A DNA stretch of 63,994 nt, counting the filler, from Atractiella rhizophila (Eukaryota): the NCBI GenBank assembly GCA_021432655.1. It is 13 parts of 11 records of this genome, joined end to end, with 100 filler letters (N's around TTAATTAATTAA, not from the genome) between each part and the next. Parts side by side here need not be neighbours in the genome. Positions count along the whole stretch, not along the records: positions 14,303 to 21,351 come from MU272245.1; 12 more parts are not named here. The stretch is one strand, 5' to 3'. Positions 7,054-55,484 of the stretch are shown here, in pieces (within the stretch, counting starts at the first letter, position 1; every line of letters starts with the position of its first letter). The notes under the pieces are model-generated. The model worked only from the letters and a program-made list of their open reading frames with translations. It was not told the origin of the DNA and ran no database searches. Position numbers and translations under genes: made by a program.

Positions 7054-7153
7054 NNNNNNNNNNNNNNNNNNNNNNNNNNNNNNNNNNNNNNNNNNNNTTA
7101 ATTAATTAANNNNNNNNNNNNNNNNNNNNNNNNNNNNNNNNNNNNNNNNNNNN
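7054..7153. other. Artificial assembly linker N44-TTAATTAATTAA-N44 (stops in all six frames)
   Basis: The identical 12-mer sits within N runs at 7098, 14247, 21396, 24984, 32117, 39235, 46348, 48820, 50662, 57761, 60050 and 62936. Confidence 0.98.
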
Positions 7154-14202: not shown

Positions 14203-14302
14203 NNNNNNNNNNNNNNNNNNNNNNNNNNNNNNNNNNNNNNNNNNNNTTAATTAATTAANNNNNNNNNNNNNNNNNNNNNNNNNNNNNNNNNNNNNNNNNN
14301 NN

Positions 14303-15511
14303 GTGCTGATCGTCTTTCCTCCTTTCTCTACCGCCGATCGGATCTCTGAAAGATAGGACACAGGGGAGGGAGCAGCTTTGGCGAAGACGTAGACGTGATT
14401 GGCGGCCATTCGTTCTTGAGCAATGAGTACCTTCTCAGATCCATTGATGACGAAATATCCTCCCTATGAACACGCCCATCACCATTTGTGGCCATCCAAG
14501 ATTAGTAAGGACGCACCTTGTCGTAAGGACACTCATTGAGCTCATACAAACTATCGTCATCCAACTCGCTAAGCGTACAAAAGTCGCTTCTCAACATGAT
14601 CGGCACCTTCCCAACGTAGACTTTACTAGCACCATCCTCCGCGCTCTCTCTCGCCGTCTCCTCCTTATCCAGCTCCCACTCATAATCTCCATCCGGTCCA
14701 GGTTCGTTCGACTTGGCGATGAGCACCCGTTTGCGGATGTCGACGTAGAGAGGGGCGGAATAGGTCAGGTTTCGAAGACGCGCTTCGTTGGGATAGAGGA
14801 GTTGCACGGACCCATCGGCTTCTGTCATCGTGGGCTTCGAGAGGTAGATTTGACCAAAGTTGATCTCGTACCGCCGCTATAGGTGCGGAAGGATAGAAGG
14901 AAAGCATGGTTCAGTATACTATTGAGTACACAACTCGACAAGAGATTCATTCGGGAGAAAATAGGACAAATCAAGAATGTGGCATCATTCATTGACTTGG
15001 CCATGCCGCGACAAATAAAGTACATCAATAGTTGATCATGCTGACGGGTAGCCAGAAACAGAAACAGTGAGGGGGAGTAAGACTTCCCGTACAGACGACG
15101 TCTCGTTCCCAAACTTTGCGTGGCAAAATTAGCAGAACAAAGACGACTCACAGTCACGTCTCCGCTCCTCCCTGTATGCTGCATTCCCTGATCCAACACC
15201 AAACTAGCATTCTCATCCACCAATTCCTGCATCGTGTTATGCACGAATTCATCAAAACTTGCCAGCTGTTGCGTGACCAGAGTCTTGTCTTGGAAGTAGG
15301 CGGCGACGACGTGCCAGCAGTCTTCTTGAGTTATCGTCTCGTTGTCATACTCATATCCTTTCTGTGGATATTGGGGTTGGGAGTAGTAAGTGTCTTGGGT
15401 GGTTTGAGTGTAACCGGGGTAGGATGAGTAGTTGGAAGAGAAACCGTCTGCCGCGACAGTGAGCGCTGACCGCACCTTACAATGAATAAAAAAAGACATA
15501 CAGGAGGACAT
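14303..15511 (-). CDS. RPB2: RNA polymerase II second-largest subunit, 5' part
   Basis: [97 protein letters not shown] 15511; 275-nt intron 15151..14877. Confidence 0.98.
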
Positions 15512-16218
15512 TATGACCGAATGGAGATAATTTATATACTTTTTATTGCGTTTTACTGATTTTCTATGCTAAACTGTTGCAAGACGCGCCACCAACCCGT
15601 TCCGAGTATTCTTTCTGCACGACCGCTTAAATTTCAGTCCCTCTCTTGATCTCTAATGTTCCCAAAACCCTGCAATGCAGCCCGTCGATCGAGAGTGTCG
15701 AGGAGGGCAAAGGGATTGAAGGTTGCTGGATGCCAAATGGTTGTCCAGTGTAAGTCAGCAATAGTAAGTTCACAAATCTTTCACAGGCTTTGCACAGGGA
15801 GAGTCATACACTTTGCTGTAGTCACAGACTACGTGATCGACTGCATCTCAAGTGGCGCAAGAACGACGACAGTTCTGAGGTCCCAGTATAGGACAGGATA
15901 GCAAGGTAGCAGGGTCAGATTGAGATATTGTAGCTGAGTGTAAGCGTTGGCTGACTACTGGTAAGCCTTCCTTCCGGTGTTGTTGGGAGTGCGAGAACCC
16001 CTTGGGTCGTCAGGAGTCTCGCAAGGATGTGATATGTTGAGCTCAAATCCTCAATAGAGCATTCTATTTCCCGATCATATTTATCTCTAGTCAAAACGTA
16101 GTACACTAGATGTGTCCATAGTGATCTCAAACGCGTAAACTGTCTGCAAGCTTGTGGATAATATAGCGTTAGCTCTTTGGCATTTATCCTCTAATATATT
16201 GCTTGGTATTAAGCTATC

Positions 16219-18515
16219 TAGTAACTCCATGAGTTTTGGAGGGAAGAAGCGGAAAAGGAGGAGACCGAGGAGAGCCCTACGTAACGGGGTCTAGTGTGTC
16301 GTGTTAAAATCCCTTAACGTGTCAAGAGAGGTAGACGAACACGTTCTCTAAGAAGCTCGTTTATATGGGTAGTTGCATGAGACTTAGGACACATGCTGGA
16401 GGACCCTAGGAGAACTAGAACTGTTTCAACGCTTATAGGTAACCTAGAGGAGCAGCTCGTAGGTTGAATTACATGAAACGCTGAAACTAGTCCTCGGACT
16501 AGTAGAGTGGGAGGGTGACAACATGTGGACCGTGAAGGTCAGATAACTCTACAACTGCTTAGTAATTGGCATCTATTAGCTTCCGCACGTAGCATTCGAG
16601 GAGAGGTCGCCCTTATCGTCATATTAAGCGCGAGCTTAGGAAAGATAGGGATCAGAGTATTTGGCCGAGGAGTTCGAGGAGCCGTGGAAACGGTAAGGGC
16701 ATTTGCGAGGTTAGCCGCACAGCGAAGCTAGGAGTAAGTGGCTGTGGAAGGACCAGCAACAGCAGCGCTCTCGGAGTCAAGACGAGAAGGAGGGTGAGAC
16801 ATTAGAGAGGTGCAGGCGAGGAAAGGGAAGTCGTAGCGGTAGCGGTAGGCGAGGAAGGAGGAGGAGTAGCTAGGAACGCGCTGAGGCTGAGTAGGAGAAG
16901 AATACAGCGCAGGACCCAGGTTTTTTCAGGTAGGAGAGGTGCTGGAATAGATAGCCGCCTCGCTACCACGAGAAGTTGGAGAAGGCAGATTTGCCACGCG
17001 CGAAGCCTAGCTCCAGGAGTAGTAGTAGCGGGCTAAGAAGGAGCTTAAGCCTTAGTCTTATCCAACTTCTCCCCCTCCCTCTGGCTCTCTGCCCTCTCTT
17101 TCACAACGACCATTCCCATAACAATACCCGCAACAACTATCCACGACTCTACGCTGGTGCCTACGCTCGCACGCTCCAGAAGGAGGTTGTCAGCAACGTG
17201 TGAGCCTGACGGCGAAGCCCCTCTGGTTCTCCTCCTGGCCCCTACTTGACTATACGCGTAACCCTCGTCTTCTAGTCTGGCGTTTGAGCTGGACAGGTAG
17301 GGTGTCGGTACCAGTTTGTGGTGACACCTTTCCTCCCTCCTCCACCCATTGCATGTTACTACGAAGGCGGCTTTGCATACTTTTACGACAAATGTTCGGA
17401 GCGTTCATAGGCATCACAGCAGGCGGTAGGTCATGAAGAATATGAGGAGTAATCGGCGAGGAGGAGGTTTGGAGGACTTGCGTACGTGGTACGACGAGAC
17501 GTAACGTGGTCGTTCTCATAACGATGAGGACTACGATGCAGATAGTAGCAGACTTAGCTACCAAAGGCAGGAGGAGTTGCTTTTAGGTCCCTACGGTTAC
17601 CTCCTATATCGCCCACAAACCTGCGGTGAGGCTACTCGCCGGCAACCTCTCTCACACCTCCGCTTTCTTACCCACCCTATCTCTCGCTCTACACCCAAGA
17701 ACTCCACCCTCCCCAAACCTCCTCCACCTGCTAAGTACCTACGGTCCCTGGGTAGCGAGGGGCAAGCGCGCGTCGATTGTCAGGGAAGTTAGCGAGCCGT
17801 CGAAGCGAGCGAAGGAGAGAGGGTCGCTGCGACAAGCGAGGCTAGCACCTTTACCGTCCCCAGCGCGAGGGCGAAGGTGACGGACATCGACAATGGCTAC
17901 TGTTCATCGATAAGCAGGGACGAAGAGAGGGTACTCATTAACAACTGCAACTTGGCCGCGACTGCCAGCTTGGTGGCCTTTGCTATGCGAAGTGGGTTGG
18001 TTCGTACGAAGGGCAGTACGGGAGTGGAAGACGAAGAGGCAGACCTAGCAGGTACAGCCCTTTTACCTGCACTACCGACACACCTTTCCTCTGCATCCAG
18101 CCTTCTCGCAGCCGCCGCCTCTACCCTCTCCGCCCAAACAACTCATCCACACCTACCCTCTACCGCGCAAACACGCCTCCTGCTCGCCTCCAACCACTCC
18201 ACCACCTTCAGTACTACTAGACCAGCCTTGTTAGCTAGAAAACAATCGTAAATAGTACGCGGTTTCGTTCAATTTGTAACGTAATACGGTTCCCGGTCTT
18301 TCGAGAGAACACTTGTATATTTGCAATTCCCTCGGTTTCAAGTCCATGCGAGTTGTGTATTTTGTCGTCCAGTTTACTAGTATTGTATTGCACAAGACGA
18401 GACGTGTACTTGTCAAGTATTGACCAGAGAGTAAGGTGCTGTTCGTCCTCAAGCGCAGTTAAAACTGATATAATGACTTCTTTGTCTTTACAAAGAGTTT
18501 GTCTACCGAATTATC
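16219..18515. other. FAB1: Mirror-image (reversed, not complemented) copy 1 of the FAB1 5' half: FYVE + Cpn60/TCP-1-like domain
   Basis: Reading + strand bases right to left: ATG at 18213-18211; YWMADDTTDTCEACKQHFHTFRRKHHC|RVCGLIFCSQC...RVCNDC (17431-17188, GTACGT...CAG intron 17355-17292); MDIRNFVKIKRIPGGRTQDSEYVDG (from 16441). Confidence 0.95.
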
Positions 18516-18540
18516 NNNNNNNNNNNNNNNNNNNNNNNNN

Positions 18541-20544
18541 AGCCCTACGTAACGGGTCTAGTGTGTCGTGTTAAAATCCCTTAACGTGTCAAGAGAGGTA
18601 GACGAACACGTTCTCTAAGAAGCTCGTTTATATGGGTAGTTGCATGAGACTTAGGACACATGCTGGAGGACCCTAGGAGAACTAGAACTGTTTCAACGCT
18701 TATAGGTAACCTAGAGGAGCAGCTCGTAGGTTGAATTACATGAAACGCTGAAACTAGTCCTCGGACTAGTAGAGTGGGAGGGTGACAACATGTGGACCGT
18801 GAAGGTCAGATAACTCTACAACTGCTTAGTAATTGGCATCTATTAGCTTCCGCACGTAGCATTCGAGGAGAGGTCGCCCTTATCGTCATATTAAGCGCGA
18901 GCTTAGGAAAGATAGGGATCAGAGTATTTGGCCCGAGGAGTTCGAGGAGCCGTGGAAACGGTAAGGGCATTTGCGAGGTTAGCCGCACAGCGAAGCTAGG
19001 AGTAAGTGGCTGTGGAAGGACCAGCAACAGCAGCGCTCTCGGAGTCAAGACGAGAAGGAGGGTGAGACATTAGAGAGGTGCAGGCGAGGAAAGGGAAGTC
19101 GTAGCGGTAGCGGTAGGCGAGGAAGGAGGAGGAGTAGCTAGGAACGCGCTGAGGCTGAGTAGGAGAAGAATACAGCGCAGGACCCAGGTTTTTTCAGGTA
19201 GGAGAGGTGCTGGAATAGATAGCCGCCTCGCTACCACGAGAAGTTGGAGAAGGCAGATTTGCCACGCGCGAAGCCTAGCTCGAGGAGTAGTAGTAGCGGA
19301 CTAAGAAGGAGCTTAAGCCTTAGCCTTATCCAACTTCTCCCCCTCCCTCTGGCTCTCTGCCCTCTCTTTCACAACGACCATTCTCATAACAATACCCGCA
19401 ACAACTATCCACGACTCTACGCTGGAGCCTACGCTCGCACGCTCCAGAAGGAGGTTGTCAGCAACGTGTGAGCCTGACGGCGAAGCCCCTCTGGTTCTCC
19501 TCCTGGCCCCTACTTGACTATACGCGTAACCCTCGTCTTCTAGTCTGGCGTTTGAGCTGGACAGGTAGGGTGTCGGTACCAGTTTGTGGTGACACCTTTC
19601 CTCCCTCCTCCACCCATTGCATGTTACTACGAAGGCGGCTTTGCATACTTTTACGACAAATGTTCGGAGCGTGCATAGGCATCACAGCAGGCGGTAGGTC
19701 ATGAAGAATATGAGGAGTAATCGGCGAGGAGGAGGTTTGGAGGACTTGCGTACGTGGTACGACGAGACGTAACGTGGTCGGTTTCATAACGATGAGGACT
19801 ACGATGCAGATAGTAGCAGACTTAGCTACCAAAGGCAGGAGGAGTTGCTTTTAGGTCCCTACGGTTACCTCCTATATCGCCCACAAACCTGCGGTGAGGC
19901 TACTCGCCAGCAACCTCTCTCACACCTCCGCTTTCTTACCCACCCTATCTCTCGCTCTACACCCAAGAACTCCACCCTCCCCAAACCTCCTCCACCTGCT
20001 AAGTACCTACGGTCCCTGGGTAGCGAGGGGGCAAGCGCACGTCGATTGTCAGGGAAGTTAGCGAGCCGTCGAAGCGAGCGAAGGAGAGAGGGTCGCTGCG
20101 ACAAGCGAGGCTAGCACCTTTACCGTCCCCAGCGCGAGGGCGAAGGTGACGGACATCGACAATGGCTACTGTTCATCGATAAGCAGGGACGAAGAGAGGG
20201 TACTCATTAACAACTGCAACTTGGCCGCGACTGCCAGCTTGGTGGCCTTTGCTATGCGAAGTGGGTTGGTTCGTACGAAGGGCAGTACGGGAGTGGAAGA
20301 CGAAGAGGCAGACCTAGCAGGTACAGCCCCTTTTACCTGCACTACCGACACACCTTTCCTCTGCATCCAGCCTTCTCGCAGCCGCCGCCTCTACCCTCTC
20401 CGCCCAAACAACTCATCCACACCTACCCTCTACCGCGCAAACACGCCTCCTGCTCGCCTCCAACCACTCCACCACCTTCAGTACCACTAGACCAAGCCTT
20501 GTTAGCTAGAAAACAATCGTAAATAGTACGCGGTTTCGTTCAAT
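18541..20544. other. FAB1: Mirror-image copy 2 (allele) of the FAB1 5' half
   Basis: Near-identical to 16273-18273. Read backwards it ends ...IVLCDLGNASR and continues in frame into the forward EEPEEEKAKKGGFEY at 20545. Confidence 0.95.
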
Positions 20545-21351
20545 GAGGAGCCAGAGGAGGAAAAGGCGAAGAAGGGAGGTTTTGAGTACCTCAATGATGT
20601 GAGGAGGCAAGAGGACATCAGAGTTCGAGCCTTGAATTCACTGGGCGATCGTGGTGCTGACGTTCTTCTCTTCTCTTTTCGAGTCCCTCGACAAGTCCTC
20701 GAGCATCTCAGCAAGAAAGGCGTTTCGGTAGCTCACGATGTCAAATATCGAACAATGGAAGCCGTCGAACGAATCACCCGAGCGAGTATAGTCACCGTTC
20801 CTGAATTAGAGGCATACATTGTGAAAATGGACGAATGGGAGACTAAAGAGACGAAAGAGAAGGAGAAGAAGGAGAGGGAAAAGGAGGACACGAAAAGGAG
20901 CGGACTTTTCTCCCTTCTCAAGTCGAAGGAGAAGGAAGAATCTCCCGCCCCACCTCCTATCACTTTCGGCGAGTGCACCACCTTCCGCCTGCACACCTAC
21001 GTCCACACCTTCATCCCTGAGCGACGAAAAACGATCATGCGTTTCGAAGGATGCCCAAAGGACCTAGGATGCTCGCTTCTCCTTCGAGGAGGGACACTAG
21101 AGAACCTGGGAAAGGTGAAGCGAACGCTTGACATGATGGTCCAGCTTGTCTACAGCCTTAAGCTTGAATGCCACCTGCTAAAAGAGGAGGGCGCCGGACC
21201 AGTTTGGCCGCTCAGGTTCGATCGAGGAGTCTCTGAAAATGCGGAGACCACCTTCTCAAAAGAGAAGAGAAATATCGCTTTTGAGACATTGGAACGGGAT
21301 CGGCATGGATTCGAGCGGGCAAGGCTGAGTCGGAGGATTCAAGATAGCTTG
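20545..21351 (+). CDS. FAB1: 1-phosphatidylinositol-3-phosphate 5-kinase Fab1/PIKfyve, internal part (CCT-like domain)
   Basis: FGECTTFRLHTYVHTFIPERRKTIMRFEGCPKDLGCSLLLRGG..LGKVK..MVQLVYSLKLE; truncated at linker. Confidence 0.9.
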
Positions 21352-23268
21352 NNNNNNNNNNNNNNNNNNNNNNNNNNNNNNNNNNNNNNNNNNNNTTAAT
21401 TAATTAANNNNNNNNNNNNNNNNNNNNNNNNNNNNNNNNNNNNNNNNNNNNTTGATCTACATGTTTTTAATGGTGTGTTCATGTTCAATTTCGCAATTTT
21501 CTCATTCATTCTCTCTTTTCACACCGCTATTCTATACTTCATTGGAATTTAATGTTCTTTTCAATGTATACTGAGAAATAGTGCCAACTGGAAGATCGAA
21601 GGAAACGGAAGCGGTTACGAAGGGGAGGGCTGATTGTTGCGGCCATAGCTGGCCGGACCAAATGCCAGCGAAACATGAAGACTGCTCAAGATGATGACTG
21701 GGGACCCAAAATTTGAGTCCCTCACGATGTCGTTATTGGCTTCCTCGGCGGGATGTACGACAGGAATACCCGCATAAAATTCAATTTCGAGTTGATCGAA
21801 ATCGCAAACCGAGCGACGCTGAGATTCCCCTCATTACAGTCCTGAGGTGGATTTCCTAGACTCCAAACTCAACCTGCCGTGTAGGCGTGAATCCCTCCTT
21901 TGGATATCCAGGACTGATTTTTGCGATATTGCAGCAATATGAATATTTCGACACAGACAACTCAAAACCGCAGTTGACATTAAAGCAGTTGTTAGTAGTG
22001 GGATGGTCATCAGCATTGTTCCGTGAGACTTGCCGCCTTGCCGCCTTGTCCTGTGAAGATCATTTGCAGGCATCAAGCCATTGTTGCGATATGTCTTTGT
22101 GGAATGACGGGATCTGCAAAGGGTTGAGAGCAAGCGCCAACTCCACCACCATGACATTTACGATTAGAAGTCAAAATCTCAAGTTCACTAAATTGCTTCA
22201 ATGAAATAGGAGGTGTGTCAGCGCTTCACAGTAACCTATGGTCTGTAATTAAATAACGAACCACAGTCGCAGTATGCCACTTTATGGGACAAGACCCTTC
22301 AGTCTAATTGATTGATCGCGTGCCTCTCGAAGCAGACGCTGCGACCCTTTTGGATACTGTTTTGGTGAGAACAATCTGATGCAGGTCCAAAGCCCCAAGG
22401 AGAGCGTCCCTCATCCCGGAAGTGCACAATATACTCCACAGTGGGAACTTTCAGGCTGCTTTCAACAAAACGCAGCTCCGCAGTCTGTTTCAGTCTCAAC
22501 AGGAGATCAATGGTGCTGGCACTTGGTCACAGCTGTGATTATGATGCACACCATACCCGAAACCCCCCTAAACATCTGTTTCAGCTAAGAACATACGGGA
22601 GTATCTTAAAGACCAAACACTCCATCATATCCCTTATCGTTGGCTTTATAAGCCACCACAAAGACAACTCCTCGTTCCGGGAAGGTTGAAGACATCGAAC
22701 CAATGGAGGAAAGCCGACAGAGACATTAGGGCAGAGGGAAGCGAAGCAGGTCTGCGGGACAGTTGAGTGCAGAGTTCTGTGAATGAGGGGGGATTGGCAG
22801 TTGCAGGCTCCATCCTTAAGAACCAGGCGGTCGGGAAAAGACGCGTCTTGGCCAAACGCAGCCAAACGCGTCTCTTTCTCAAGCTTAAACCAAGCTTTAC
22901 CTACCCCAGCCTGAGCAAGGGCTGAACGGAGACTCTACTAGCTAAACGGTCCCTTAGACAGACGCAGGATGCCGAATGAAAGCAACTCTCTCGACCTTTC
23001 TTTGGAGGGCCGTAAGCCGCAAAGACAGAAGCATAAGAAGACTGCGACGACATTTCCCAAAATCTGGAACGATTTCTTGCGGTTTAGCTGGGAGGATGGA
23101 GAGGGTGCGCGTTCTATCTTATAACTTAGACGGGTGCGGGTTCGTTGACTGTTGTTTTGTCTTGGGATTAGTGGCGGAGGGGTTGTTAACACTCGATGGA
23201 ATGGTTGGTGAAGGCTGGATACCATCTCCGTTCGCACCCTTCTCCTAAACCTCATTCTAAGCTCAAAC

Positions 23269-27360: not shown

Positions 27361-30300
27361 TAGGGATGGCTACCGTACCGTATCGTCGTCTCAGCACCAC
27401 TTCCGGACGGTACGTGCCCTCTATCGGCTCGTATCGTACCGTAACAAATTTTGGTTGTCAGATACGTACGGGTACGGCGGAAAACGGGAGAATACGACGG
27501 ATTACGGGTTATATGGCATAGCAATTTCGTCACAGCCTTAGGTGTAACAATTTCATCTCTTCTGAGCCTCCCGCTCTGCAATGTCATCCTCCAATGTCTT
27601 CAGCTCCCTCTGCAACTCTGTAAGATGAGATTTCCGTTGCAAGCGCAATGTGGTCTTGAGCATGATAAGATCACGTATACTCTCAGGATCTAGACGGTGA
27701 CGGCGAATACCTATGGTATCACGAGCTCCAGAGAAGATGCGCTCGACTCCCACAGCACAACCTATAACAATCAAAACCTGAAAACAAGTGAGGACACTTT
27801 GGGAAGACACATACCCGGAATAGCCAGAATATCTCGAGCCAGACGAGACAAGTTGCGCAAGTTGTGCTTCGACTCGTGCTTCCAAAAGGTAAGTGGATCC
27901 ACTCCCCAAGCCAGTGGTGCATGCTTGAAGAGGTAGTTGATTTCCTTCATCGCTCCAACGTCATCCGCTCCTGTTTTTGGACCATGACCAATAGATGCGA
28001 GATAATCGGCCGTCAGGTTCGGATTCACCCGTGACAGCTTTGCCTGGGTTGGAATGGGTTGAACTGTTGTGTGGGGAGCTTCGTAGTAGTGATCTCGAAA
28101 GAGGTCGATGAAATTTGATTTGTGTTCTTCAATCTCGTCCCGTTCCAAGTCGAACACAGAGGAGTTGAGGAATGACACACCGAGACGAGGATCACAGACT
28201 ATTTCGCAAATTTTGTCAGTCATAGGTGCTGGTGGTTATAAGAAAGAACTTACTAATTGCATATACATAATAAGGAGAGAGATCTGAGCGATAATGGTAG
28301 TCACTCAACTTGTAATAACAGTCGAGAAGAGCCTGGCGATATTCCTTATCCACAGCTGTGTCCGTAAGCTTCGAGATCTCTCCCTTCAGAAATCCGAGCA
28401 GAGAATGGTATACTCCGAGTGTTTGAGAGAGACAAGATGTCTGGCTCATCGACATGTCATATGTCACTTGTCGGAAAACCGCGAGCCATTTGCACACCTG
28501 AGCAGTAGTCAGAATTAGAACATCTGGCATGTAGAAATGTTAAGAGTAGGAGACGCGCCTGTTCAACTGAATTCCACTCCTTCTCACTCAGATGCAGCAT
28601 GAACGGAAGCTCATGGCGATCTGAATAAGTTTCGATGACATCCTTGTATCGAATTCCAAGGTCCAGCATGTCGTGGGTTGATCCCCACCGTGTCCGAACG
28701 TCAAGGATGAGCATGCGGAGGGACTCATCGGAAAGGCTCTCGTAGGTCTTCAAAGCATCCTCCAAAAGATCTAACCAGCTCTTCTGACGTTGAGGAGAGC
28801 CACGAACGTGTTTGATGATGGCTCGAAGCTGTCAGACGATTGAGAAAGTACAGCAGCATCAATAGAAGCAACAAGCATACCTTTGGTATCGCTCCATTGA
28901 CTGTGTTCAAATCCAGTTCTACTTCATTCAATTCCTCCTCACCCAGTTGTGCAGCATTGTCTTGTGTGACTGTAGGATCCTCCGTCACGCACTCTTGGTA
29001 CAATGCATCCTTAGTGAACGTGGTCGAAGCTGAAGTTGTCGGAAGTGAAGTATCAAGTTTAGAATGCTTCGTATTTGTGACAAGAGGCATGGCGGGAGGT
29101 TTCATGATTGGAGCTGAAGGCTTTGGCCAAACGTTCAAGAAGTCCAGCAGGGCAATAACGGCCAGATGAATAATATGAGGCATGCAAAGTATGTGCCTTT
29201 CAGTGGCGTTGAACTCGATATTTCTTTTCTTTAGCCGCTGTTCGATACCGCTTAATGTTGTCTTGTTGTTAGAAGCGCCATCCGTGGTAAAGCACCAATC
29301 TATAACTCAGGTTGTTAGTAAGTGAACACAACTAGTAAAGCAGAGGCTGACCAAATTCGCCAATCCAAATTTATCGACCACCTTCATAATCACATCCGCC
29401 ATATTCTGTCCTGAATGAGCTCCGATAAGCTCTTCAAATCCCAGCACAACTTCCACCAGTTCCCAGTCGCTGTTGATGAATTGACCGATAAGACAGAGGA
29501 ATGCATAATGGTTTTCGGAAGTCCAGTTGTCAAGCGAGAGGTGAACTTTGGATCCAGATTCCTTATCACACATCAGTGAAATACATTGATAACCAAAGAG
29601 TAGACAGACCTTCAGAGTTTGCGCAAGCTTCTCATTGCTTCTTTCTGCATATGCATGTATTTGCTCCTTCAGCACCTTACGACTTGGTATCTCCATCTTC
29701 TTCTTTGGACTTTTACCAGATTCTTCCACAAATTGCAGTCCGCCTTTCGTAAGATCCGTAAGCCGTATTTCTTTGGCAGAAGGCAGTGTCCATTGGAGGT
29801 AGATGAGGAGTTCTTGAAAGGCTGGACTGTCCACAATCGAGAAGGGAAGATCTTCTTCAACAACAACTCGATTAAGCAGATCAGCAAAGATGGCGGAGTC
29901 AAACCCCTGAGAAACATTGACGTGCTCATTCAGTAGTAGCACTAGTGAATCAGTGAATCACATACCTGTGTATTATATTTCTCCATTGCCCGACTCAGAA
30001 TATCATCGATGCCCTTAGATTTTTTCTTTGAGGTCACGCCATCCATTTCTCCGATCTACAAGCCCGCTATTAAAACTTAGTACACAGTCAGGCCAGGAAC
30101 AAACTGGAATGGTTCCTGCTGCCTTCTGAAGCTCTTCCTCAGTAATCTCCATACAACTCTTTCGCTTTTCCTTTAGAAGTCTAAAGAGTGGCGCAACAGT
30201 CCTGCCATGATTTTCAACAAGATGATTGCACAGAGTTTTTGTATTTCCATTGCTGGCTACACTGGATCGCAGGACTGTGCTGCAATGGTTGCAGCCGAGA

Positions 30301-45149: not shown

Positions 45150-45566
45150 CGCACCATTTGAAATCACGTGACCTACTTTCACCACGTCATAGGATCACGT
45201 GCCTGCCCATCGCCGCTTTGCTCACGTTCGCGCTGATCGACGCCTTCCCTATCTCACACAAATCGCCGCTCAGCAAACCTTACACGTTTCGCCGGTCTGC
45301 GCCGTCTCCATTATTGCTTTATTGTCCTTTCTTACTTGTACTGCTCAGTGTGACTTATTTCCGAGTATTCCCTTTATTGCTTTCCTGATCTAGCTATCTT
45401 ATATGTTTCAAGAAACGTATGTTACAGTTTATGGCAGTGCCCTTACTTATGTATATATACATCGAGATGTAGTGGTGGCGACCTCAGAGTATTCTCGTAG
45501 GTTTACCTCCACTACAGGTTAGTCTCCTCTTGCCATAGTATTCACTTAGGTTTACCTCCACTACAG
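45150..45566 (+). repeat. Possible solo LTR / LTR U5 remnant with internal direct and inverted repeats
   Basis: TATA-rich segment, 20-nt direct repeat TAGGTTTACCTCCACTACAG (45498-45517, 45547-45566), inverted partner TGTAGTGG at 45468; lies between copia fragments; no TSD found. Confidence 0.4.
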
Positions 45567-46169
45567 ACGCATCGCCTATCGGCGACCGCACATAGTGTCA
45601 GCCCTAACAAGATTCTGCACTCAAGCATAGGAGTTTGAGCTGCATAGACGACTCTTTCATTGCCTTGGAGAGGGCGGTGACAACTGTTGAGAAGTTCTTA
45701 AGAGCCTCGTGGAAGTTGTCGCCGGGAGCACCTTCAGCCAGCAGTGACGCCACAGTGGCGGCATCTCTCGCCGCATCCTAGGTGAGCTCCGAGACTGCCC
45801 TCATTGATTGGGATGCCACCTGGCAATCTGGCTGGAAGAATCCTATCTTCTGAACACAGAAGTCGCTCGCCTCCTTGTTTCTCACTATCTCTTCATCTCT
45901 CTGTCTAAGCTCATTGTCCTTCTTGGAATCTATGTGTGTTTATCCTCCTTCTGCTCCTTTGCATTGGAGATCCGGTTTATTTACGATCGTTTCCATGTTA
46001 TCCTATACTCTTTTTGCTAACAACACGGGTGCTAAGTGACCATTTATTTTTTATCGTTCTCCTTCAATACTCCACGGAGCAGTATGTTATCGGCTATCGT
46101 TCTTGCTGATCCGCTCCCTCTACAGATAGGGATCTAACATTGAAAATGCCCTCCGTACATTAGCACCTG

Positions 46170-52998: not shown

Positions 52999-55484
52999 GA
53001 GTTGTTCGATCTTCAGCTGCTGGCAATGGCAATGCAAGGACTTCCCGTAATCACGTAGAAAATCATGGGCGCTCAATCAGGCCGTTCTTCAGCTTTTTGA
53101 AGGAAAAGCAGGACAAGAAGATGGCGATCACGAAGGAGGAGATGCGGAAGGCAGCAGGCATAACACCAGTTTGGTCCTTTGATTGCAAAGTCATTCATGT
53201 AGAGTTCTCATGTACACCTGAAATTCCATCTGGATTGATTCGAAAGATGGATCCAGAGCTGCAAGAAAGGGCCAAGGAATCGACGATATCCTGCGACAAG
53301 TAGCGAAGAAGTATGGCTCACAGATTTGTGGCTCTTTTAGAAATCAGTAGGTGCTGACCATATGATACATAGGGTTTTAATTCTACTATCTTCGAGGACC
53401 CCCTTACTCGCTTTGTTCGCTTTGTTGTTGAAGAAGACCTTCCATTCAGCATTGTAGAAAGTCCATCCTTTCAGGAACTTCTAATATATCTTCAGTGGAC
53501 AGTACCTTCTGCCTCCAAGATAGAAATTCCTGATACTGAAAATGAAGGACTCCCCTGAAGAAAAGAATAGTGACAAGAAGTTTGAAATACCGAGCTGAAC
53601 GATTCTGAAAGAGCGTATATGTAAGGTTGCTTTGAAAACTACAGAAGAAATGGCTAGATATCTAAAGGTGCGTACTTGGACGCTTCTGTAACAGCCTACT
53701 GAAGCATGAGGAATGGCTACGGGAACAAAGATCCATCTCTCACTCGATAACTGGACTTCAGAAAAATCACTAGGCATTCCTCTGTGTTAGTGCACACTTC
53801 ATTGATAGCAAATGGGACTTGAATGAGGTATGCGTCGGGTTTGAAGAACTCATTGACCCACATACGGGGGAGAACATGGCAGATGTGATTATGAAAATAG
53901 TTGATAAGTATGGAGTGGCTGATCAAGTATGTGCCTTAATTACATTTCATGCATATTCGTTAACAGTTGTACAGATTGGGTGGTTTGTCACTGATGGAGC
54001 TTCAAACAATGGAACAATGCTGACCGGGATTGAGCAACGAATGAAGAAGCGAGGCATCGACTTTGATGCTTCTGAGCGCCACATTCTTTTATGCCCCATA
54101 TCGTTCACCTTGCAGTTCTCGCCCTCCTAGACTTTCTCAATGTATGGCCAAAATCACGGTCAGGTACAAAGGCGAAAGGGAGGACGGATACAATGAGTGG
54201 GCATGCGACAAAAGTTACATCACTTTCACGGGATGTCAACTATCAGGAGTGTGTCACGGAGAAGCCAACAAATGAACAGATGGATACCGGGAAACTAAGC
54301 GAGGAAGAGCTGAACGGAGTGGAGACAGATTTCGAGCAGATTAGAGCAGCAATACCCAAGGTATATCTTATGCTCTGTCATTGCTTCCTATTAATCAGAG
54401 GAACAGTTGCTAGCAATCATTAAGCATATACGTGGGTCTCCTCAGTGCCAGCAGAGCTGTTTCGATATTTTGGAAGATGCTCTCAAGCAACTCGAAACCA
54501 TAGCTGAAAAATCCCTTCGTATGTTGTACAACAAACACGTTGGGGATCAACACATGACATGCTTGACCTTGGAATTCGCTATAAGGATGTCATTGAAGCT
54601 TATCTGGATCGCCATGAGCTTCCAAGTTCCCTGCACCTCAGTGAAAAACAGTGGAACTCGATTGAACAGGTTTGTTATCTCTTAGAGCTATACTATTACT
54701 GAATAGCTGGATTCAGGTCTGCAGATGGCTTGCAGTTTTTCAGCAGGCAACCTAGGACATGTCAATGACCAAGTCCTCCTGCCTCTTGCAAACTCTTGGT
54801 GTCTACCATTCTCTCCTAGGACACCTGAAGACCGAAATCTCAAGTCTTACAGACAAGATAGTTCAGAAAGAGGTCCTGGCAAGCTTTGCTTGACTGTTAC
54901 TATAAGCTTGTGAATATCACTACCACTCTGATCTTTCACCTTATTACATCTACTCTATCAGTATGTCATTTTTGTTCTGCCCTTGCTCTGCAATGAGTGT
55001 GACTTCGGAACAGTTTGAGACCCTTGTCTTGATGTCGCTTTCCTTGACTCTTCAGTCTTTGATAGTGAACGTGATGAGGTCTTGCAGCACAAGGAGAATT
55101 TCATCACTCTTTTCAGATATCACTGCTATAAGATACCTGTCCCTCCTCCTGAACCAACTTCTCCCGGCTCAAAATTCTCCAGACAATCCACGAAGGCAAA
55201 GCCGAATTTAACAGCTGCTTTCCTTGCTTCCCTTCAGCACGGTGTTACTCCTGGAGCTAGTGAGGATCCTGTCATGAAAGAGATTAACCATTATTTAGAC
55301 ATAGTGTGTTACCTTGGGATTCTGATCCTTTGGCTTTCTGGAAATACTAATCAACTCACAATCTCCTGAACCTTTCAAGTTTGGCTCGGTTGGCTCGGGA
55401 TATTTTGTCAATTCCGGGTGAGCTTTCTTTTTCTTTTGTCGTACCGCTCGGAACCGTTACGATACGAGCCGATAGCCATCCCTA
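52999..55484 (+). mobile_element. Degenerate hAT element related to 27361-31784 (5' truncated, last exon deleted)
   Basis: VVEEDLPFSIVES, HLSLDNWTSE, WFVTDGASNN, MPHIVHLAV, ARLARDILSIPG with frameshifts; same TIR GCCATCCCTA at 55475-55484. Confidence 0.9.

Follow-up and report, generated by a model that had tools for sequence, protein, structure and literature searches.

In natural inversions and inverted repeats a segment is flipped relative to its neighbours, a natural inversion yielding the reverse complement. Mirror repeats and H-DNA tracts equal their partner in the reversed, non-complemented sense; known examples are short, low-complexity purine or pyrimidine tracts, symmetric about their centre. 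The scaffold MU272245.1 of Atractiella rhizophila shares the flipped segment with the former and the absence of complementation with the latter. However, its two anomalous blocks have their letters reversed only, as seen from their match to the complemented sequence, and they are 2-kb complex coding blocks that mirror a gene. The FAB1 gene itself is ordinary, the public Fab1 protein P0006 (2194 aa) having the same FYVE, TCP-1-like and PIP5K domains as the phosphatidylinositol-3-phosphate 5-kinase Fab1/PIKfyve, and the damage is confined to its representation on this 7049-bp scaffold. The scaffold duplicates, over 7 kb and with differences at the 0.5-0.9% level, a locus whose intact form lies on a 144,775-bp contig, and in this it is comparable to the haplotigs or redundant small scaffolds of draft fungal assemblies. 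Still, colinearity with the main copy is the rule for such scaffolds, whereas this one carries backwards text.

The flank-extension gap-filler PBJelly (PMC3504050) offers a technical parallel. In the passages of that report considered here, a gap is defined as 25 or more N, and a gap is termed 'overfilled' when two extensions lack an identifiable overlap and yet exceed the gap size. Likewise, the present scaffold has putative additions on both flanks, no recognised overlap and a sum larger than the true gap, and its residual gap is exactly 25 N, i.e. the PBJelly threshold. Conversely, the additions are here reversed without complementation, and reversed output is not described in those passages. 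The reversal itself may be the reason why no overlap was recognised. Full-text phrase searches of the literature for reversed but not complemented sequence found no paper on such assembly blocks, which is not proof of absence.

Layout and polarity of the 7049-bp scaffold

The window, i.e. the whole stretch of DNA that was analysed (63,994 nt, all positions counting along it), contains MU272245.1 at 14303-21351, including both mirrored blocks and the 25-N gap. The left flank (L, 14303..16218, minus strand) is of normal polarity and comprises the first RPB2 exons (15445->14305) together with upstream intergenic DNA. Its ORFs show 100% identity to the public proteins P0156 and P0157 (RPB2) over residues 5-275/276, and the RPB2 piece matches Pfam RNA_pol_Rpb2_1 with an E value of 3.3e-57. 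The right flank (B, 20545..21351, plus strand) is also of normal polarity and reaches the scaffold end; it is FAB1 exon sequence encoding P0006 residues 574-842, the CCT/TCP1-like region (100% over 269 aa). Taken alone, flank B scores 27.4 bits against PF00118, under the 34.3 cut-off, as compared with 57.5 bits for the same domain within P0006 (residues 512-785). Between the flanks lie mirrored block 1 (16219..18515, 2297 nt), the residual gap (18516..18540, 25 N) and mirrored block 2 (18541..20544, 2004 nt), none of them assigned a strand. The blocks adjoin their flanks without N, and only the 25 N separate them from each other. Four intra-scaffold gaps are present in the window (25, 51, 563 and 467 N); 18516-18540 is the sole 25-N run, and the other three have normal polarity on their flanks.

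Block 2, read from right to left, consists of a 61-nt leader and P0006 codons 1-573 with one 64-nt intron, and it meets flank B in frame at 20545. Block 1 in the same reading combines approximately 300 nt from upstream of FAB1, the 5' part of the gene and the initial 54 nt of flank B. The mirrored DNA is the 5' half of FAB1, reversed and uncomplemented, in keeping with the original prediction. The reversal is observed directly. Read right to left, 16219-16272 equals 20545-20598 at 54/54 nt, and when the complemented window was compared with the window by BLAST this pair was the sole match (E 1.8e-21); with a probability of 4^-54 for the agreement of random 54-mers, chance is excluded. Residues 1-573 of P0006 were found only in the backwards reading of 20323->18541, with 572/573 identical (234/234 and 338/339), while a six-frame tblastn of the deposited window with P0006 returned residues 574-842 and nothing of 1-573. 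Likewise, a BLAST of the window against itself on both strands gave no minus-strand match for either block.

The gene features noted at the outset were all recovered from the backwards reading. The start codon ATG is located at 20483->20481, the FYVE and CCT-like motifs are present, and the 64-nt intron (19623->19560) reads GTACGTTA...GGACAG and interrupts the codon of the Cys that lies between HH and RVC. The N-terminal FYVE zinc finger is called in P0006 at residues 208-273 (PF01363, E 8.8e-18, above the cut-off). Combining this Pfam call with tblastn against the reversed window places its coding part at 19441..19702, backwards and with the intron included; all of these residues (100%) are encoded by the backwards reading of copy 2. 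The in-frame continuation into flank B was also confirmed, as the P0006 residue boundary 573|574 falls precisely on the joint 20544/20545.

The composition of the blocks is flipped as well, in line with the original prediction: TA:AT is 147:76 and 125:61 in the two blocks but 103:129 in flank L, 17:37 in flank B and 2249:3552 over the remainder of the window. Polarity was further scored as the log-likelihood of a sequence minus that of its reversal, using a strand-symmetric 4th-order Markov model trained on the other scaffolds of the window and applied to 400-nt windows. The score was negative in 19/19 windows inside the blocks and in 0/10 in the two flanks. On the other scaffolds 12/250 windows were negative, all weakly and none forming a run; the minimum there was -8.8, whereas the blocks averaged -13.5. 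When the region 15300-16700 was scanned for polarity in 150-nt steps, the signal was too noisy for placing the left edge of the reversal, and a short-word search for any partner, direct or reversed, of the terminal 519 nt of flank L gave chance-level hits only (≤27 nt, E ≥0.88). The left edge was set by the 54-nt match in combination with a 12-nt overlap. The overlapping letters are at 18503..18514, which read backwards correspond to the end of flank L (16207-16218) with an 11/12 match; none of 20000 random 40-mers from another scaffold was equally good. They show where block 1 truly begins, namely where L ends, and 16219..16272 reveals that this block crossed the true gap completely and entered flank B.

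The redundancy of the two blocks is equally a direct observation. Aligned over 2005 columns, copy 1 (16273-18273) and copy 2 (18541-20544) form a direct repeat of 99.2% identity; 11 substitutions and 5 one-base indels separate them, all located within short homopolymer runs or next to one. Three of the five indels break the P0006 frame in copy 1, and variants between the copies sit as near as 14-51 nt to the block ends. Each block represents the one locus independently and with errors of its own. Merged contigs could give both the seamless joint 20544/20545 and the 12-nt redundant joint 16218/16219.

The intact locus and the public protein models

A search of proteins with the forward FAB1 piece, exhaustive in scope, led to P0006; the same query against longer proteins only gave 5 weak matches of at most 1049 aa and no full-length Fab1. 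In addition to the FYVE and PF00118 domains, P0006 contains a C-terminal PIP kinase domain (PF01504, residues 2037-2163, 87.5 bits), the coding part of which is outside the 64-kb window. P0006 and the full-length RPB2 protein P0157 (1235 aa) are each recorded on a 144,775-bp contig, presumably one and the same given the equal size, while P0007 and P0156, both truncated models, are assigned to a contig of 7049 bp, the size of the present scaffold. All four carry the same organism name. Consequently, a correct copy of the locus exists, and the 7049-bp scaffold is redundant as well as damaged. The scope of the earlier reading is corrected accordingly: the assembly is not missing the FAB1 5' half, since FAB1 is intact on the 144,775-bp contig.

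The expectation that the annotation would be affected was borne out by P0007. This model maps forward to 20254-21213 and is genuine Fab1 only in residues 66-288. Residues 1-65 are bogus, being a forward reading of mirrored DNA; their source is the stretch at 20254..20544 (plus strand), which was misread by the gene caller.

Sequencing-run evidence and the origin of the mirrored blocks

Read support at the right junction was examined in public sequencing runs. Two runs from one sample, X1 and X2, each provide one contig on 20545-21351, and both contigs depart from the deposit exactly at 20545, with 93 or 393 extra letters before this position that do not fit the deposited sequence. The last 30 letters of these loose ends are identical to 18541-18570 read backwards (30/30), a comparison that covers 30 letters of one sample at the joint 20544/20545. 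The true junction at 20545 is thereby observed with un-mirrored sequence, as expected from the original suggestion of an artefact. Compared with flank B, the run contig has 7 differences in 807 letters, all synonymous by codon count, and the runs may therefore represent another allele or strain rather than the exact scaffold source. Words sampled from 18541-21351 were not found at a share of half or more in any of three runs (best share 0.21), and 21/21 bins of 18541-20514 were uncovered in X1, X2 and X3, although absent cover proves nothing. X3, a soil metagenome, contributed only two contigs of 151 nt to flank B, with a depth of 2.

The mirrored FAB1 DNA is almost certainly an assembly artefact and not biology. 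Any letter string is possible in principle, and blocks that are real in the DNA of the organism would constitute a kilobase-scale 'reverse repeat'; no data speak in favour of this reading, and we consider it vanishingly improbable. The public-run contigs leave the deposit at 20545 and carry normal-polarity sequence, and the locus is intact on the long contig. Moreover, the backwards reading contains a 573-codon frame with a GT...AG intron and 572/573 matching residues, and selection cannot keep features in a direction that is not read. We know of no mechanism for copying with reversed polarity. A decoding error in colour space (two-base encoding) can produce exactly such a transform: a sequence and its complement share one colour string, which runs backwards for the reverse complement, and a wrong first base can therefore give the non-complemented reversal. 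Nevertheless, this origin is very unlikely, as the other two swaps (A<->C/G<->T and A<->G/C<->T) gave 0 matches in the window, the runs found date from 2016, and the copies differ partly by homopolymer indels, which are not known as the error type of that chemistry.

The anatomy of the scaffold instead argues for gap filling. Block 1 read backwards continues L (11/12) and ends 54 nt inside B, block 2 read backwards continues in frame to B, each block covers the true gap in full, and the residual 25-N gap has new sequence on both sides. The original small scaffold would have comprised flank L (RPB2 start and intergenic DNA), a gap and flank B (the middle of FAB1), and a gap-closing step during assembly finishing would have added lower-quality sequence to each flank. 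The rightward extension from L would then span the whole true gap and 54 nt of B, and the leftward extension from B approximately 2 kb. An orientation-handling error would have inserted both extension strings in reversed letter order and uncomplemented; because the left block would no longer end in an overlap with the beginning of the right one, the program would see no closure and leave a minimal 25-N gap. The outcome would be approximately 4.3 kb of backwards text in place of approximately 2.2 kb of real sequence. This route, which goes beyond the observations in taking the reversed units for gap-fill extensions and in naming the program step that failed, is probably the correct one, with one such event in the 64-kb window and the link to the 25-N gap at n = 1.

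The original prediction had instead invoked a scaffolding script that complemented minus-oriented contigs without reversing them. Joining L+, c2-, c3- and B+ in this way yields plain reversal, since the complement of a reverse complement is a reversal, and it predicts the exact order and polarity seen, namely L, rev(c2), gap, rev(c3), B. Contig c3 would repeat part of c2 in another version, placed in tandem, a situation common where near-identical versions of a locus coexist, and the sequence differences are compatible with this (0.5-0.9%, from the 11 substitutions between the copies and the 7 sites between the run contig and B, those in flank B all synonymous). However, the L/c2 and c3/B joints lack N even though a scaffolder normally inserts a gap between contigs, and the 12-nt L/c2 overlap with its mismatch, as well as the variants 14-51 nt from the block ends, misfit contigs from a k-mer graph. 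Furthermore, the other scaffold pieces in the window are unreversed, yet about half of the contigs would be expected to be minus-oriented. We therefore regard the contig-level error as a possible but not a probable origin. An orientation-handling error is common to both routes; the proposed contig units are not the only option, as gap-filler flank extensions fit the anatomy at least as well.

Consequences for databases and screening

The biological weight of the mirrored sequence is nil: FAB1 is ordinary in this organism, and the mirrored text arose from a writing error. The practical weight is slight: public databases now contain approximately 4.3 kb of meaningless DNA along with at least one chimeric model (P0007). 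Such reversal errors pass unnoticed through all standard similarity checks, because no aligner is known to try the non-complemented reversal, and this failure mode is worth knowing where orphan or unannotated sequence is mined for novelty. It is conceivable, if rather doubtful, that a systematic orientation bug in finishing or gap filling seeds kilobase-long backwards blocks beside minimal gaps in this and other public drafts. Were this the case, the blocks would go unseen by BLAST, dot plots and six-frame translation, and would inflate the amount of apparently novel sequence and spawn bogus gene models like P0007. They would nonetheless be detectable by the TA:AT ratio or by the polarity score, which separated the present blocks cleanly and could provide a cheap screen for whole assemblies.

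Mirrored blocks within the 7049-nt scaffold

The scaffold at 14303-21351 contains a sole internal N run (25 N, 18516-18540), the only 25-N gap in the window, across which two blocks (16219-18515 and 18541-20544) face each other with their letter order reversed but not complemented. Both adjoin sequence of normal polarity without any N. Read from right to left, 16219-16272 equals 20545-20598 letter for letter (54/54), exactly as had been claimed from the sequence, and when the complemented window was compared with the window by BLAST this pair was the sole match (E 1.8e-21), the two remaining base swaps giving no matches against the window. In direct orientation, copy 1 of the mirrored text (16273-18273) and copy 2 (18541-20544) are 99.2% identical over 2005 BLAST columns, with 11 substitutions and 5 one-base indels that all lie within or adjoin short homopolymer runs. 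In both blocks the dinucleotide balance is inverted: TA outnumbers AT at 147:76 and 125:61, while TA:AT stands at 2249:3552 for the remaining window, at 103:129 for the left flank and at 17:37 for the right one. This bears out the TA-richness noted previously. A strand-symmetric, 4th-order model, for which the window's other scaffolds served as training data, was also used to score polarity in 400-nt windows, the log-likelihood of the reversed letters being subtracted from that of the letters as deposited. The score was negative in 19/19 windows of the blocks, in 0/10 of the flanks and in 12/250 elsewhere, and no other piece of the window contained a run of negative windows. The two lowest scores outside the blocks (-9 and -5, 45291-45890) are isolated and far weaker, and probably represent noise or unusual composition.

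FAB1 coding content of the reversed text

Read in reversed letter order, copy 2 has open frames as long as 434 codons, compared to 275 for the piece as deposited, and its translation contains the FYVE and CCT-like motifs quoted in the original prediction. An exhaustive protein search with the forward-oriented 20545-21351 yielded the full-length Fab1 protein P0006 (2194 aa), residues 574-842 of which match the query with 100% identity (all 269 residues). On the window as deposited, tblastn of P0006 matches these residues only. The comparison of the reversed DNA with Fab1, proposed as a check, supplied the part ahead of them: residues 1-234 align at 20323->19622 (234/234 identical) and residues 235-573 at 19557->18541 (338/339). 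The two matches are separated by the predicted 64-nt intron in the coding part of the FYVE finger, located at 19623->19560 of the backwards reading with the ends GTACGTTA...GGACAG. By Pfam, P0006 has FYVE at residues 208-273 (E 8.8e-18), followed by a TCP-1-like domain (512-785) and PIP5K (2037-2163); the gene is an ordinary Fab1/PIKfyve one. Combined with the tblastn matches, the domain positions mean that, within the window, the entire FYVE finger and the initial portion of the TCP-1-like domain are represented by reversed letters only. Copy 1 specifies the same protein, but with the frame interrupted by three one-base indels. As its backwards reading has an upstream ATG (18213->18211) in frame with the P0006 start Met, adding ~52 residues, the real FAB1 start codon may lie upstream of that in the public model; in copy 2 the frame from the upstream ATG (region 20323-20483) is broken by a one-base C-run difference at 20327.

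Intact locus and public reads

The left flank (14303-16218), of normal polarity, carries the first RPB2 exons on the minus strand (Pfam E 3.3e-57), so that RPB2 and FAB1 lie side by side in divergent orientation once the reading direction of the blocks is corrected. P0006 and the full-length RPB2 P0157 (1235 aa) are proteins of one organism, each assigned to a 144,775-bp contig; the identical length suggests one and the same contig. The truncated models of Fab1 (P0007, 288 aa) and RPB2 (P0156, 275 aa) come from a contig of 7049 bp, equal in length to the studied scaffold, and share the locus-tag prefix of the full-length pair. Since full-length proteins lie on the 144,775-bp contig, there is an intact RPB2–FAB1 locus, seemingly within the annotated assembly that also includes the 7049-nt scaffold, and the latter is a redundant copy of it. 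In P0007 the first 65 residues are a forward reading of backwards DNA (20254-20544), and Fab1 follows only thereafter.

A word-index search of public runs with 18541-21351 gave a share of 0.21 for X1 and X2, two runs of a single sample, and 0.06 for the soil metagenome X3. One contig each from X1 and X2 fits 20545-21351 and carries 93 or 393 extra letters ahead of 20545 at odds with the deposit; of these loose ends, the 30 letters displayed are identical to 18541-18570 in backwards reading. At the 20544/20545 junction the run contigs thus carry the un-mirrored letters. Over the right flank 7/807 letters differ (20718, 20721, 20967, 21051, 21171, 21178 and 21192), and because all seven are synonymous by codon count the contig looks like another allele or strain (~0.9% apart) rather than sequencing error. 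X3 gave two 151-nt contigs of depth 2 (20843-20993 and 21078-21228; 1 and 2 differences from FAB1), too little to indicate habitat.

Origin of the reversed text

In the backwards reading a 573-codon frame stays open, both splice sites are in place and 572/573 residues agree; selection, we infer, could not have maintained these features on DNA never read that way. This preservation, the intact locus elsewhere and the disagreement of public reads with the deposit make it virtually certain, all artefact routes taken together, that the mirrored blocks are not a real genome feature, upholding the earlier preference for artefact over biology. An ordinary inversion is ruled out, as the blocks show no reverse-complement identity, and so is a natural mirror repeat, as they consist of complex coding sequence at kilobase scale.

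How the letters came to be reversed is suggested by the joints. Read backwards, block 1 starts by repeating the last 12 letters of the left flank (11/12 matched, equalled by 0/20000 random controls) and its far end lies 54 nt inside the right flank, which the end of block 2 meets seamlessly; each block is accordingly its own flank's continuation into the gap. Each covers all or almost all of the true gap (~2.2 kb), with small errors of its own. This anatomy most likely reflects a flank-extension gap-filler, with an unrecognised overlap between the two extensions. Each flank would have been extended into the gap and both extensions written in reversed order in place; had reversal preceded the overlap test, as seems probable, the facing ends of the two blocks would no longer have matched. 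In the PBJelly paper, for which a gap is any run of at least 25 N, 'overfilled' gaps are described in passages that do not mention reversed output (PMC3504050). The blocks resemble such an overfilled gap plus an orientation bug. The original prediction, in which whole minus-oriented contigs were complemented without reversing, would yield the same letters and was right as to an orientation-error artefact. As a contig-level script step, however, it is a distinctly less favoured possibility, since the joints with the flanks are N-free, the overlap at the left joint is only 12 nt and imperfect, and no other of the window's 17 N-free pieces is reversed. Colour-space decoding errors can give this transform too, yet nothing in the window points to one, and the other base swaps lack matches. 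A literature phrase search found no description of such reversed blocks in assemblies, which is weak evidence of absence.

The significance of the artefact is practical and slight: a normal search finds no match for ~4.3 kb of the scaffold's letters. The window itself strings together at least 13 small scaffold pieces with 100-nt spacers in between (e.g. 7054-7153, 14203-14302 and 21352-21451), each spacer holding a 12-nt stop word for all frames between two runs of 44 N, the piece lengths being partly near-equal and descending (7049, 7049, 7033, 7018, 7013, 6999) and interleaved with shorter ones (3488, 2372, 1742, 2189, 2786). True reverse-complement matches of ~82% identity occur between two other scaffolds, 28558-28693 with 54535-54670 (138 nt) and 29775-29866 with 53422-53513 (92 nt), and are probably due to two paralogous genes or a dispersed repeat.
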